A stretch of DNA of 64,000 nucleotides, taken from a virus. A program made the translations under genes and the position numbers. Below the pieces are notes generated by a model. That model worked only from the letters and a program-made list of their open reading frames with translations, ran no database searches and was not told the origin of the DNA. Below, one piece after another: positions 54,768 through 63,694 of this stretch (position 1 is its first letter; each line of letters starts with the position of its first letter). The stretch spans positions 1 through 64,000 of the IMG/VR virus record IMGVR_UViG_3300042446_001440. The stretch is one strand, 5' to 3'.

Positions 54768-55637
54768 ATGAAGATATTATACGTAACTAACCATTTAAGT
54801 ATAGCTAGAGCAAGTGGTGGATATATTAATGATTATCAAAATGATCTAATATTCTATGGGTTAAGAGAATTATTTGGAGACGATGTTGTAGATAGTACCC
54901 AAATCGTATCACTTTATAAAGAAAATAAAGATAAAATACCATCCCAACACATATGGGGAGGTATGACTACTTGTTGGTTAATAGATAAAAATAATATTAA
55001 CCGGGATAGTATTGAAGACAAAATTAAATCCCAATATTACGATTTAATAATATATGGTACTATTAAAAGATGTAAAGACTATTACGATTTAGCTTCTAAA
55101 GTATATCCCCCAAATAAAATAATTCTAATTGATGGTAATGACGAAAGTGAATTAGATCCTCTTTATAAAAAACATTTATATTTTAAAAGAGAATTAACTA
55201 TAAACCATCCTAATCTTCTACCTATAACATTCGGAATACCTACTTCTAAAATAGCCACACCTACCCTTGCAAAAACTAAAGATTTTGCTACATGTATACC
55301 TGGCCAACCTGAAACTTATATTTTTAAAGAAGAACAGCCATATTATGAAGATTATCAAAAATCATTTTATGGAGTAACCATAAAGAAAGCTGGGTGGGAT
55401 TGTATGAGACACTATGAAATATTAGCTAATTATTGCATACCCTACTTCATTGGATTGGAAGATTGTCCTAAAGATACACTATCTCATTTTCCTAAAGAAT
55501 TATTATTAGAAGCAAGAGAATTAGCTAATAACTTTGATGAGCAAAAATACTTCAATATATTGGATGAATTATTTAATTACACAAAAAATAATTTAACAAC
55601 AAAAAGCATAGCAAACTATATAATATCTAAAATATAA
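54768..55637 (+). CDS. Putative glycosyltransferase (GT-B-like)
   Basis: IDG.D; YFKREL; KKAGWDCMRHYEILAN.CIPYF. Confidence 0.6.
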   Translation: MKILYVTNHLSIARASGGYINDYQNDLIFYGLRELFGDDVVDSTQIVSLYKENKDKIPSQHIWGGMTTCWLIDKNNINRDSIEDKIKSQYYDLIIYGTIKRCKDYYDLASKVYPPNKIILIDGNDESELDPLYKKHLYFKRELTINHPNLLPITFGIPTSKIATPTLAKTKDFATCIPGQPETYIFKEEQPYYEDYQKSFYGVTIKKAGWDCMRHYEILANYCIPYFIGLEDCPKDTLSHFPKELLLEARELANNFDEQKYFNILDELFNYTKNNLTTKSIANYIISKI

Positions 55638-56290
55638 TGTACACTAGTAATTTACACGAACCCGAAACTATCCGCAATTTAAATTGTGAAATTAAACGTC
55701 ACGATATAATTAATCATTTAATTGGAAAATACAATTTGGTTAATTACTTAGAGATTGGTGTATTTAAAGGAGAAAATATAAGAGAAATTAATGCTCTCCA
55801 TAAAGATGGAGTTGACCCCGGACATGAAGGGGTAATAGTACCTGAAGTAAATTATAGAATGACGTCAGACGATTTCTTTGAATTACTTAAAGGACATGAG
55901 GATATTAAATATGATATTATTTTTATAGATGGTTTACATCATGCTGACCAAGTAACTAAAGATATTAAGAATGCTTTAAATCACTTAGTACCTAAAGGGT
56001 TTGTTGTATTACACGATTGTAATCCAATCAGCTATGAAGCACAACTAATACCTAGACAAACAGTAGCTTGGAATGGTGATACATGGAAGGCATTTGTTGG
56101 ATTTAAAATGGATAATATAGATTTTCAATGTTGTGTTATAGATACTGACTTTGGAGTTGGAGTAATTAAGAATACTGTTTACACACCTAAATTTAATATC
56201 CATTCAACTTTACATTGGAATCAGCTTAACGAAGATAGAAAACAGTTATTAAATCTAATTAGTTATGATGAATTTAAAGCAACTTATTAA
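55637..56290 (+). CDS. Class I SAM methyltransferase (Methyltransf_24-like)
   Basis: YLEIGV; GVDP; DIIFIDGLH; LHDC. Confidence 0.85.
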   Translation: MYTSNLHEPETIRNLNCEIKRHDIINHLIGKYNLVNYLEIGVFKGENIREINALHKDGVDPGHEGVIVPEVNYRMTSDDFFELLKGHEDIKYDIIFIDGLHHADQVTKDIKNALNHLVPKGFVVLHDCNPISYEAQLIPRQTVAWNGDTWKAFVGFKMDNIDFQCCVIDTDFGVGVIKNTVYTPKFNIHSTLHWNQLNEDRKQLLNLISYDEFKATY

Positions 56291-57652: not shown

Positions 57653-58399
57653 ATGGATATATATTTTAAAGAAACCCCAGCAGGTCATTTTTGCCTTATT
57701 GAAAAAGATCTAATTAGTAGCTGTATAGCCAACTCAGGATATTGGGAACCTCATTTATATTATTTTTACTCTCAATTTATTAAACCCAATTACACCATTA
57801 TAGATGGAGGAGCTAATATTGGTTTTCATAGCATACAATTCGCTAAATTAGCAAATGAAGGTAAAGTATATAGCTTTGAACCACAATCACTAATATTTAA
57901 TGTTCTATCAACTAATTCACTTATAAATGGAACAAGTGATATAATCCTACAATATAGATTAGGTTTAAGTGATACTGATGGTAACCTAAAAATGACTCCA
58001 CTCAGTGAACAACAATTCTCAGAAACTTGTATTAACTATGGAGGAAGAGGAATAACAGACTCAGATTTGGGTGAGGAAGTAGTAGAATTAACAACTATAG
58101 ATAACTTACATTTACCTAAATTAGATTTTATTAAACTAGATGTACAAGGATTTGAATTAAAAGCACTTAAGGGTGGTGAAAATACTATTAAGTCTAATTA
58201 CCCAATAATGTTTATTGAAAATTATCTTAATTTAGAAGTAGACCAACATGTAATGCAGTTATTAGAAGATTGGGGGTATGTAATATATAGATTATTATGT
58301 ACTGAGAATAAAGAAGATTGTATAATAGTACATCCAGAAAGACACATTGAAGAAATTAAATTTATTGAAACACAAGATAAAATAAAATGGACAAAATAA
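57653..58399 (+). CDS. FkbM-family methyltransferase
   Basis: DGGANIG; FEPQ; NYGG; KLDVQGFE. Confidence 0.9.
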   Translation: MDIYFKETPAGHFCLIEKDLISSCIANSGYWEPHLYYFYSQFIKPNYTIIDGGANIGFHSIQFAKLANEGKVYSFEPQSLIFNVLSTNSLINGTSDIILQYRLGLSDTDGNLKMTPLSEQQFSETCINYGGRGITDSDLGEEVVELTTIDNLHLPKLDFIKLDVQGFELKALKGGENTIKSNYPIMFIENYLNLEVDQHVMQLLEDWGYVIYRLLCTENKEDCIIVHPERHIEEIKFIETQDKIKWTK

Positions 58400-59599: not shown

Positions 59600-60139
59600 A
59601 TGGCTACTTCTTCAAAACGCAACGCACCAAAGTTAAGCAGAATTGTAACATTAGGAGAAATTGAGTCAGAACTTATCAATAATATCATACAATTAATATA
59701 TGAAATTAATGATGAAGACGCGAAAAAAACGCATGCTGAACCAATTAAGCTCATAATCAACTCACTTGGAGGCGAAGTGTATAGTGGCCTAGCTTTAATT
59801 GATGTCATTGATAGTTCACAGACTCCCGTTTATACAATATGTCATGGTTCATGCATGTCTATGGCGTTACCAATATACGCTGCTGGTCACCATAGATTAG
59901 CAAGTAAAAATGCTACATTCATGTATCATGAAGCATCATATGCCGCTGAAGGAAAAGTATTACACCATAAACAAGAATTGAAAGAAACTGATCGTATTGA
60001 TATATTATGTGATAATTACTTATTATCTAAAACTAAATTCACTCAAAAACAGCTGACAGATATTAAAAATAAGCGTGGAGAGTGGTATTTTGATATAAAA
60101 GTAGCTACTAAATATGGGCTAGTAAACGAAGTAATTTAA
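59600..60139 (+). CDS. clpP: ClpP-family protease subunit
   Basis: INSLGGEV; CMSMA (catalytic Ser); FMYHE (catalytic His); YGLVNEV. Confidence 0.9.
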   Translation: MATSSKRNAPKLSRIVTLGEIESELINNIIQLIYEINDEDAKKTHAEPIKLIINSLGGEVYSGLALIDVIDSSQTPVYTICHGSCMSMALPIYAAGHHRLASKNATFMYHEASYAAEGKVLHHKQELKETDRIDILCDNYLLSKTKFTQKQLTDIKNKRGEWYFDIKVATKYGLVNEVI

Positions 60140-61439: not shown

Positions 61440-62042
61440 ATGCCTGCTGCAAAACCTTTAACTAAGTTTCAAATAGAAACAGCAATGCGCTACACTAAAT
61501 CAGTGAGAGCAGCCGCTAAGTATTTAGGATGTTCCTATCATCACCTTAAGCCTTTTATGAAGGTACTTAGAGTAGATGATTCAGATCCTAATTCACCAAC
61601 TTTATTTGATGCTCATAAAAATCAAAACGGTAAAGGCATTCCTAAGTTCTTACCTAACAAACGTAAAGAACCAAATGTTAAAAATATTATCTTAACAGGT
61701 ACAGGATGGGAATCATTTACACCTGATAAAATAAAAGTAAGACTAGTAGCTGAGGGTTATTTAAGAGATGAATGTTATGTTTGTGGATTTAGTGAACGTA
61801 GAGTAACAGACTTTAAAATTCCATTACTCCTACATTTTAAAGATAATAATAAATGTAATTATCTACTTGATAATCTAGAGCAAACATGCTATAATTGCTA
61901 TTATTTATACGTTGGAGAGGTATTAACACCAAGCCAAATACGCAGTGTAGAAGATTCATCACCACCATTAGCAAAACCATTTGAATGGGACTTAGATGAT
62001 GAACAAATAGCAAATATGAAGGCATTAGGAATTTTTGAATAA
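61440..62042 (+). CDS. HTH plus degenerate HNH/Zn-finger protein
   Basis: SVRAAAKYLGCSY; CYVCG...LLLHFKDNN..N..LDNL...CYNC. Confidence 0.65.
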   Translation: MPAAKPLTKFQIETAMRYTKSVRAAAKYLGCSYHHLKPFMKVLRVDDSDPNSPTLFDAHKNQNGKGIPKFLPNKRKEPNVKNIILTGTGWESFTPDKIKVRLVAEGYLRDECYVCGFSERRVTDFKIPLLLHFKDNNKCNYLLDNLEQTCYNCYYLYVGEVLTPSQIRSVEDSSPPLAKPFEWDLDDEQIANMKALGIFE

Positions 62043-62803: not shown

Positions 62804-62876
62804 TCCAGAATAGCTCAGTTGGTAGAGCAGCTGATTTGTAATCAGCAGGTCGCAAGTTCGACTCTTGTTTCTGGAT
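62804..62876 (+). tRNA. tRNA-Thr(UGU)
   Basis: TCCAGAA/TTCTGGA; GCTGA-TTTGTAA-TCAGC; TTCGA. Confidence 0.93.
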
Positions 62877-62877
62877 C

Positions 62878-62981: not shown

Positions 62982-63068
62982 GGAAGAGTAGCCAAGCGGT
63001 TGACGGCACCTGACTTGAAATCAGACATACGGGAAACTGTATCGTGGGTTCGAATCCTACCTCTTCCG
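62982..63068 (+). tRNA. tRNA-Ser(UGA)
   Basis: GGAAGAG/CTCTTCC, G discriminator; loop CTTGAAA; long variable arm. Confidence 0.93.
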
Positions 63069-63073
63069 CAGCT

Positions 63074-63144
63074 TGGGTTATGGTGTAATGGCAACACTAC
63101 AGATTTTGATTCTGTCGTTTTAGGTTCGAGTCCTGGTAACCCAA
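63074..63144 (+). tRNA. tRNA-Gln(UUG)
   Basis: TGGGTTA/TAACCCA; ACAGA-TTTTGAT-TCTGT. Confidence 0.93.
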
Positions 63145-63145
63145 C

Positions 63146-63280
63146 AAAAAGAACTAGCAAACAAATGACACGCACGGCAGCCTGGAATGTGTGCACACTG
63201 AACAGGCAATGCGAACGAAGAGGATGGGATACCTCACTGTGCGTAGGTTAGATTCAACGCCCGTCGCTAGTTCTTTTTTT
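63146..63280 (+). ncRNA. Rod-like RNA with central bubble and branched tip, unassigned (6S-like shape)
   Basis: 13-bp AAAAAGAACTAGC/GCTAGTTCTTTTT; ACGCACGG/CTGTGCGT; GCCTG/CAGGC; GAGG/CCTC. Confidence 0.6.
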
Positions 63281-63284
63281 ACAT

Positions 63285-63444
63285 TGTAGGATGGTGAAAT
63301 GCTCTAGAGCTTGGAATACACAGCGCCCCGTCTAGGCGCCGCGGATCACGAAATAGATAAATGATAATGGGTTGACCACACGCTTGCAAGCACAAATGTC
63401 ATTTATTGAATCGCCGTATGGAGGTTCAAATCCTTCTCCTACAG
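63285..63444 (+). ncRNA. 160-nt tRNA-like RNA with D-loop insertion and very large variable arm
   Basis: TGTAGGA/TCCTACA; GCGCC-CCGTCTA-GGCGC; GGAGG-TTCAAAT-CCTTC; insert of about 80 nt. Confidence 0.7.
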
Positions 63445-63445
63445 C

Positions 63446-63592
63446 TAAAGAGGATAAAATGTGTAGTAACCTCAAGGAAGCTAGCTCCTACTACACTCTT
63501 TAAGTGTTACCCAAAGGGTAAACGCACTGGTATGAGACTTGTTCTCTCAAACTCGATACCTAAAGTTGAGCTGTCAATTGAAAGATTGACTT
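63446..63592 (+). ncRNA. Tandem-hairpin structured segment, unassigned
   Basis: GTGTAGTA/TACTACAC, TTACCC/GGGTAA, GGTAT/ATACC, GTCAATT-gaaa-GATTGAC. Confidence 0.45.
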
Positions 63593-63595
63593 AAT

Positions 63596-63681
63596 GCCCC
63601 GGTGGTGGAACTGGTAGACACGCAGGACTTAAAATCCTGTTCGCTGTAAGGCGAGTGACGGTTCGATTCCGTTCTAGGGCA
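63596..63681 (+). tRNA. tRNA-Leu(UAA)
   Basis: CAGGA-CTTAAAA-TCCTG; long variable arm; one acceptor-stem mismatch. Confidence 0.92.
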
Positions 63682-63694
63682 CATAATTATAATC

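Follow-up and report, generated by a model that had tools for sequence, protein, structure and literature searches.

The tRNA cluster at the end of the window

The window analysed here is the first 64 kb (64,000 nt) of an 80,169-bp virus record that is about 49% complete by CheckV. Its G+C content is about 32%, its genes lie on the + strand, and 17 DNA runs from lake and freshwater metagenomes contain at least half of the window's sampled words, indicating a lake-water phage. A tRNA cluster is located at the right end of the window, where tRNA-Gln and tRNA-Leu are separated by a gap of 450 nt that contains a 160-nt tRNA-like RNA:

62804-62877: tRNA-Thr(tgt)
62982-63069: tRNA-Ser(tga)
63074-63145: tRNA-Gln(ttg)
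63285-63444, + strand: tRNA-like RNA, U1 to discriminator G73 (160 nt; 149.5 bits with the family model R1 described below)
63596-63682: tRNA-Leu(taa), after the tRNA-like RNA

A phage tmRNA gene (genome positions 63992-64464; L001 3992-4464), which matches RF00023 with 61.9 bits and starts 9 nt before the window ends, lies 550 nt downstream of the tRNA-like RNA; it received no ARAGORN call in this genome. It overlaps the end of a 105-aa ORF (63695-64012), and the tmRNA tags of related phages include ANEYAVAA, ADYAVAA and DEMSTMTFDDLMAFVGADYAVAA.

The spacers on either side of the tRNA-like RNA are themselves structured. The element between tRNA-Gln and the tRNA-like RNA (63146-63278; fold z = -3.06) has a 13-bp closing stem, AAAAAGAACTAGC/GCTAGTTCTTTTT, enclosing about 105 nt. 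It has no match in Rfam, is 98.6% identical in L135, and is 77-79% identical in L090, L094, L172 and L164, where it is placed after the tRNA-like RNA. A second structured spacer (63447-63595; z = -3.23) begins with a hairpin (63447-63500) that has a copy of 78% identity in L031, following a different odd tRNA-like element, and a match of 84% identity in the uncultured phage record LR756500; its segment AAGGGTAAACGCACT is common to a mini tRNA-like element at L043 14269-14331. Upstream of the cluster are two DNA methyltransferase-like ORFs and one HNH endonuclease-like ORF (55637-56290, 57653-58399 and 61440-62042), and an ORF resembling ClpP-type head maturation proteases (59600-60139). A promoter and terminator scan around the cluster found nothing above shuffles that bears on the tRNA-like RNA.

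Architecture of the tRNA-like RNA

The locus contains a cloverleaf with a 7-bp acceptor stem, a D arm with GG, a 5-bp anticodon stem with a 7-nt loop, and a 5-bp T stem with a TTCRANY loop. The elements named in the original prediction (acceptor stem, T arm, D-loop palindrome, anticodon stem and loop, and 11-bp stem) were all confirmed, at the following positions:

63285-63291/63437-63443, + strand: acceptor stem TGTAGGA/TCCTACA (both sides changed in 5/7 pairs)
63294-63321, + strand: Leu-type D arm, with a 3-bp stem GTG/CAC and a loop that holds a palindrome and the elbow GG (63313-63314)
63301-63310, + strand: D-loop insertion GCTCTAGAGC, a 10-nt palindrome ahead of the elbow GG, forming a covarying hairpin
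63323-63339, + strand: anticodon-like arm GCGCC-CCGTCTA-GGCGC (stem 63323-63327/63335-63339; GTC 63330-63332)
63341-63417, + strand: variable arm of 77 nt, comprising a base stem GCGG/CCGT, a 4-nt bulge, CG/CG pairs, an internal loop, an 11-bp stem and an apex
63356-63366/63397-63407, + strand: 11-bp stem of the variable arm, GATAAATGATA/TGTCATTTATT
63368-63378, + strand: conserved 3-bp hairpin TGG-GTTGA-CCA, containing GGGTTGACCAC
63382-63391, + strand: apical perfect palindrome GCTTGCAAGC
63420-63436, + strand: T arm GGAGG-TTCAAAT-CCTTC, with a canonical T loop (3/5 pairs changed on both sides)
63444, + strand: discriminator G73

The loop CCGTCTA places C at position 33, GTC at 34-36, T at 37 and A at 38. 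In the variable arm, pairs have changed on both sides at 3/4 positions of the base stem and 8/11 positions of the 11-bp stem. The internal loop is conserved, with CGAAATAG facing GAATCG, and GGGTTGACCAC is the best-conserved arm motif, being found in the phage copies and in most of the chromosomal copies described below. The internal loop was also inspected by eye as a possible K-turn or sarcin-ricin motif, and both readings were discarded, as the consensus fits neither. The small apical hairpins that had been predicted proved to be of two kinds: the 3-bp hairpin at 63368-63378 is conserved, whereas GCTTGCAAGC at 63382-63391 is unstable as a hairpin (about 0 kcal/mol) and is instead a perfect palindrome. 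Single-sequence folding of the whole RNA is unremarkable (z = -1.05) and the minimum-energy fold mispairs the D region, so the case for an RNA rests on comparison.

Detection by tRNA finders and class assignment

ARAGORN, with or without introns, made no call at the locus, and the Rfam tRNA model RF00005 gave no match there at E values up to 10. When both inserts were removed in silico ARAGORN called a tRNA-Asp(gtc), whereas removal of one insert alone was insufficient. Standard tRNA finders miss the family, which makes it invisible in annotation.

The RNA was compared with known classes. Decoding tRNAs nearly always have U33 and a purine at position 37, both of which are absent from the window RNA (C33, T37), and the RNA is not the only GAY reader of its cluster, as a canonical tRNA-Asp(gtc) is present in the same cluster at 15/57 phage loci. 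A class II tRNA-Leu would have A73 and a leucine anticodon, where this family has G73 (36/37 phage members) and GUC. The third acceptor pair is U3-A70 rather than the G3-U70 of tmRNA, an anticodon arm is present, and RF00023 matches only the neighbouring gene at 63992-64464. The acceptor/T geometry is 7/5, not the 8/5, 9/4, 8/4 or 9/3 of tRNA-Sec and allo-tRNAs. The inserts (10 and 77 nt) lie in the D loop and the variable region rather than at the 37/38 position of tRNA introns and they covary; no intron family was found at the locus in the Rfam scans. With respect to aspartyl-tRNA synthetase (AspRS), the window RNA has the identity marks G34-U35-C36, G73, G2-C71 and G10 but not C38 (A38 here). 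With respect to GatCAB, the U1-A72 pair of a substrate is invariant, while the D loop is large, with a hairpin in phages, where a substrate has a small one. The model of its own family matches the window RNA at 149.5 bits, and the RNA has the family's U1-A72, G2-C71, GUC followed by a pyrimidine at position 37, internal loop and GGGUUGACCAC.

Phage homologues and covariation

When 50,697 phage records were searched with the region by BLASTN, only the flanking tRNAs were matched and not the tRNA-like RNA, and an exact 24-mer of the T arm and acceptor had no match in IMG/VR. Two first homologues were reached through relatives that share the neighbouring 398-aa protein and the 105-aa ORF beside the tmRNA gene, and in these the acceptor stem and the T stem both showed compensatory changes. 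A gapped motif search then gave 9 loci in IMG/VR and about 45 true loci in metagenomes, lakes being the main source. The resulting phage alignment, A4, has 37 members (36 distinct sequences plus the window). Under the hand-drawn structure 95.9% of cells are paired and 25/46 pairs have changed on both sides; when partners were slid by 1-3 columns only 39-49% were paired, and 0/500 shuffles reached any of these measures. Covariation is seen in all helices but the shortest ones, the arm included. The covariance and the conserved motifs within the insert bear out the earlier view that this is not a decayed tRNA-Asp. Model R1, built from A4, scores members at 150-162 bits (149.5 bits for the window) and its best non-family match, ordinary tRNA-Leu, at about 40 bits, giving a clean family boundary.

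The positions that are invariant in all 37 phage members are U1-A72, G2-C71, U8-G9-G10, GTC at 34-36, CGAAATAG, GACCAC and the T loop; G73 is present in 36/37 and C38 in 33/37, the window being one of the exceptions at position 38. The flanks of the anticodon-like loop drift: six loop versions occur, with C, T or A at position 33 and, without exception, T or C at position 37. Across the whole family, chromosomal copies included, position 33 can be any of C, U, A and G and position 37 is always a pyrimidine, in agreement with the non-decoding loop originally proposed.

In phages the tRNA-like RNA always lies within a tRNA cluster and on the tRNA strand, usually preceded by Ser(tga), Gln or Arg(tct) and followed by Leu or the tmRNA. 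A canonical tRNA-Asp adjoins it in the larger clusters, and its presence in the same cluster at 15/57 loci means that the tRNA-like RNA does not replace tRNA-Asp. Model R1 did not find the RNA in the close relatives L031, L084 and L086, so that it is accessory and dispensable. Relative to L135, a phage with about 95% identity across the locus, the RNA differs in 41/161 columns while the flanking elements differ by 1.4% and 0%; 29 of these changes are in paired columns, and the partner has also changed in 22. Such divergence reflects either allele swapping or fast, structure-preserving change. The insert was present in every relative in which the RNA was found. RNA-library contigs from two studies of freshwater span the whole arm of relatives with no joint and thus give no sign of splicing, although they provide neither ends nor strand and may derive from DNA carry-over, so that transcription is not provable from them; their depth values and the uncovered parts of the cluster are not interpretable.

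Two further odd tRNA-like families were observed in related phages. The first, uncalled by tRNA finders, occurs at L083 1438-1552, L085 2519-2603 (identical to L031 14307-14391) and L002 14412-14514; its members are 84-114 nt long, share the acceptor AGTCAGG/CCTGACT and the T arm, have a highly variable middle, and reach only 16-29 bits with R1. The other (98-100 nt; L084 3584-3684, L085 2767-2866, L086 3072-3171 and L087 2644-2742) has TGACCCT as its acceptor and D and T arms of normal form; the stem on the anticodon side is extended and shows compensatory changes, with a conserved AGTAC and an inner hairpin; one member is called as a 95-nt tRNA-Val(cac) by ARAGORN.

Chromosomal copies in Bacteroidota

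Model R1 was applied to 151 genomes (G002-G152) of the phylum of a Chitinophagales genome (Bacteroidota), and matches were found in 13/151, with scores of 64-104 bits, lengths of 109-212 nt and E values of 1e-11 or better. There were no matches in 151 genomes of another phylum, that of a Caulobacter genome. A wide bacterial spread was considered and rejected: the 23 gapped-motif matches in genome contigs, mostly in G+C-rich DNA, are chance matches, none of which closes the tRNA-like frame. In the chromosomal copies 91.9% of cells are paired and 22 pairs show double changes; slid controls over the phage and bacterial alignments gave 39-58%. The pairs U1-A72 and G2-C71 are invariant in the 37 phage and 17 bacterial copies (U1-A72 in 54/54), and GTC is present in 15/17 bacterial copies. 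Position 33 is G in one chromosomal copy and U in most, position 37 is always a pyrimidine, and most copies have A10-U25 instead of G10. The chromosomal copies have arms of 49-141 nt, which share GGGUUGACCAC with the phage arms and have an internal loop related to theirs; they have no D-loop hairpin, and the apical palindrome is mostly absent. One tandem pair (G137:C1:3852069-3852399; L222 1279-1609) has an arm of about 45 nt without GGGUUGACCAC and the loop CTTTCTC, in which UUC replaces GUC.

Hosts that have their own tRNA-Asp carry the tRNA-like RNA as an extra gene. In 8/14 chromosomal loci the divergent neighbour, 130-240 nt upstream, encodes an AsnC-like regulator of 154-167 aa, whose best model is NF008384 (AsnC) at 162 bits, under the cut-off of 227, with Lrp at 52 bits. 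No toxin or defence gene was found as a conserved neighbour of the chromosomal copies, and no Rfam 15 family matches the copies or their flanks at E values up to 0.01. A class II synthetase beside one copy was an ordinary LysRS and was set aside. Together, the phage and chromosomal alignments show that the tRNA-like RNA is a real RNA gene, conserved and structured, which is built on a tRNA frame and occurs in both phages and hosts. Since the family is a chromosomal gene of Bacteroidota, usually located beside an AsnC-like regulator, the copy in phages is a host RNA that has been borrowed and elaborated, and not a phage-invented counter-defence. The same distribution leaves the suggestion of a decoy against anticodon nucleases unsupported; of the partners originally envisaged for a decoy or binder, a synthetase fits best, as the AspRS identity marks are conserved.

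Self-complementary elements of the phage copies

The D-loop insertion is a perfect palindrome of 8-12 nt in 24/37 phage members and is absent from the chromosomal copies. In all 37 phage members the apical element is a perfect palindrome of even length (6-12 nt), in 10 different sequences with the centres CCGG, TGCA, TCGA, GCGC and AGCT; shuffles gave a palindrome of at least 8 nt in 6%. On its own, the apical palindrome has a predicted hairpin energy of 0 to -0.1 kcal/mol and a self-duplex energy of -14 to -17 kcal/mol (-16 for GCTTGCAAGC). Full-length cofolding does not single out this element (a gain of -13.9 kcal/mol, vs -12.0 kcal/mol with the palindrome shuffled) and is no test of dimerisation, as any hairpin RNA gains by domain swapping. 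Self-complementarity is kept while the sequence is free to vary, which points to pairing between two RNA molecules, and from the predicted energies the apical palindrome probably acts in this way. The always-perfect apical palindrome is a new point, and makes the RNA a candidate for dimerisation.

Relationship to known RNAs

No entry for the giant-armed Asp-type family exists in Rfam 15, and a search of the full-text literature found no description of it, which is absence of evidence in that most subscription journals are outside the coverage of the search. The giant-armed Asp-type tRNA-like RNA is an uncatalogued family of Bacteroidota bacteria and their large phages. Its body resembles class II tRNA-Leu (RF00005) in the 3-bp D stem, the UG-GUG...GGCAGA-CAC layout, and a variable-arm stem preceded by one unpaired base and followed by two, but differs from it in G73 (not A73), GUC, the D-loop hairpin and a variable arm of 77 nt (about 15 nt in tRNA-Leu). 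With bacterial tRNA-Asp(GUC) it shares the aspartate identity set (PMC9976931) of GUC, G73, G2-C71, G10 (in the phage clade) and, in most members, C38, and it differs in having U1-A72 rather than G1-C72, in allowing C, A or G at position 33, in the pyrimidine at 37 and in its class II body. The tRNA-Asn of the indirect pathway (non-discriminating AspRS and GatCAB transamidosome) has the same U1-A72, G73 and G34-U35, and by this likeness the RNA would be aspartylated; unlike that tRNA, it has C36, making it cognate for any AspRS, together with a non-decoding loop and a giant arm, and its carriers have AsnRS.

Other tRNA-shaped RNAs are more distant. The non-proteinogenic tRNA-Gly species of Staphylococcus are cell-wall glycine donors of normal size, altered mainly in the T arm. 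They are analogous in being tRNA-shaped, chargeable, off translation and present beside a decoding isoacceptor, but they have no structured insertion and belong to another amino acid and another phylum. As in tmRNA (RF00023), a large insert is held within a tRNA-like acceptor and T-arm frame; here, however, G3-U70, a tag reading frame and pseudoknots are absent, and D and anticodon arms are present. YrlA and other bacterial Y RNAs carry a tRNA-like module (PMC4201824), and so share with this family non-decoding tRNA mimicry in bacteria and phages; the ends of YrlA sit in the Ro-binding stem rather than an acceptor stem, and the RNA described here has no Rfam match.

Discussion

We propose, with moderate confidence and from conservation patterns, that the RNA is charged, or at least bound, by AspRS, does not decode, and acts off the ribosome. 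It would be transcribed with the phage tRNA genes and, since its acceptor stem, elbow and T arm are all intact, would mature as tRNAs do, being cut by RNase P at the 5′ end, trimmed at the 3′ end and given CCA. The comparison of conserved and drifting positions indicates that the nucleotides read by AspRS are held, whereas those that serve the U-turn and codon stacking are not. The major aspartate determinants are G73 and G34-U35-C36 (PMC9976931); with these kept, together with G2-C71, mostly C38 and, in the phage clade, G10, the host AspRS probably binds the RNA and charges it with aspartate. As U33 and the purine at 37 have been given up and a large conserved arm is present, the most likely role is one off the ribosome, either that of an aminoacyl carrier or that of a regulator that binds a synthetase. 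The arm, with its internal loop and GGGUUGACCAC hairpin, may be the handle for a partner, although no partner protein was found, complete relatives of the phage having neither an Asn synthase nor a GatB domain. The phage clade appears to have added two self-complementary elements, of which the apical one, unable to fold on itself, probably joins two RNA molecules. Against charging are the replacement of G10 by A10-U25 in most chromosomal copies, the UUC tandem pair of one genome and A38 in the window, and the huge variable arm and Leu-type D arm could hinder AspRS.

A tentative elaboration, possible but not probable, is that the RNA carries asparagine: AspRS would aspartylate it, GatCAB would amidate the product to Asn via U1-A72, and the loop and arm would keep the Asn-RNA(GUC) off the ribosome. 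Equally tentative is the accompanying idea that the AsnC-like neighbour controls the RNA in cells, and that the phage copy raises the supply of asparagine for an Asn-rich proteome. Amidotransferases rely on U1-A72 (PMC9976931), a pair retained in every copy though tRNA-Asp normally has G1-C72. The neighbouring regulator, closer to AsnC than to Lrp albeit below the cut-off, also favours this route, although it is absent in 6/14 loci. Asn makes up 6.6% of phage ORFs vs 4.9% of the sampled Bacteroidota ORFs. Five RNA-bearing genomes have GatB despite having GlnRS and AsnRS, and all five lack AsnA; few genomes of the sample have asnA (4/151), and GatB is absent in 3 of those 4. However, GatB is present in 126/151 genomes and its presence in all carriers would arise by chance about 1 time in 13, which makes it weak evidence; as a phyletic test the survey is uninformative, GatB being too common and asnA too rare in the phylum. 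AsnB-type synthases in 4/5 carriers and AsnRS in all five leave no evident need for the route, neither an Asn synthase nor a GatB domain is encoded by three related phages with complete genomes, and there is no known release step for free asparagine. A large D loop is the kind of feature by which GatCAB rejects tRNAs, and the D loop here is large and Leu-type, with a hairpin in phages. The asparagine route is compatible with the data and coherent, but is not supported by need. The most complete version, which we regard as unlikely, is a dedicated off-ribosome carrier that receives Asp from AspRS, has it converted to Asn by GatCAB via U1-A72, is barred from translation by its loop and arm, is regulated by AsnC in cells, and has been hijacked by large Bacteroidota phages, whose version also pairs with itself into dimers or larger assemblies by means of palindromes specific to each lineage. 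The genome survey suggests that GatCAB supplies asparagine throughout the phylum, whether or not the tRNA-like RNA is present. Separately, AsnA and GatCAB show a possible complementarity for asparagine supply across the 151 genomes.

[quoted passage not shown] Conservation of GUC while the loop flanks drift is what such a sponge would show, no segment has diverged more than the RNA between two phages that are nearly identical (41/161 columns vs 0-1.4% in the flanks), as in an arms race or allele swapping, and synthetase regulation through anticodon-arm mimics has a precedent (PMC9976931); a decoy for an anticodon reader, however, needs neither invariant U1-A72, G2-C71 and G73 nor a perfect acceptor and T arm, and the chromosomal copies have a regulator of metabolic type as neighbour, and no toxin or defence gene conserved nearby. 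That the RNA is an odd but working tRNA-Asp decoding GAC and GAU is very unlikely: it has a complete cloverleaf with GUC and lies among working tRNA genes, but U is not kept at position 33, only pyrimidines occur at position 37, and a canonical tRNA-Asp accompanies it in the larger phage clusters and in hosts that keep the RNA as an extra. Least credible of all, and highly improbable, is the absence of any RNA function, with the locus a decaying pseudo-tRNA or its palindromes acting in DNA as protein or restriction sites. Both palindromes do resemble type II restriction sites, and some close relatives have no copy, yet compensatory changes run throughout the RNA, arm included, and palindrome sequence varies by lineage with only self-complementarity kept, so that no single DNA-binding protein fits.

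Charged, non-decoding, tRNA-shaped RNAs are rare, and the known cases serve cell-wall synthesis, tmRNA rescue and tRNA-dependent amino-acid synthesis. Each of these opened new biology, and here a whole family is present in a major phylum and its large phages. For phage biology, the family would exemplify the borrowing of a host regulatory or metabolic RNA instead of a protein gene.
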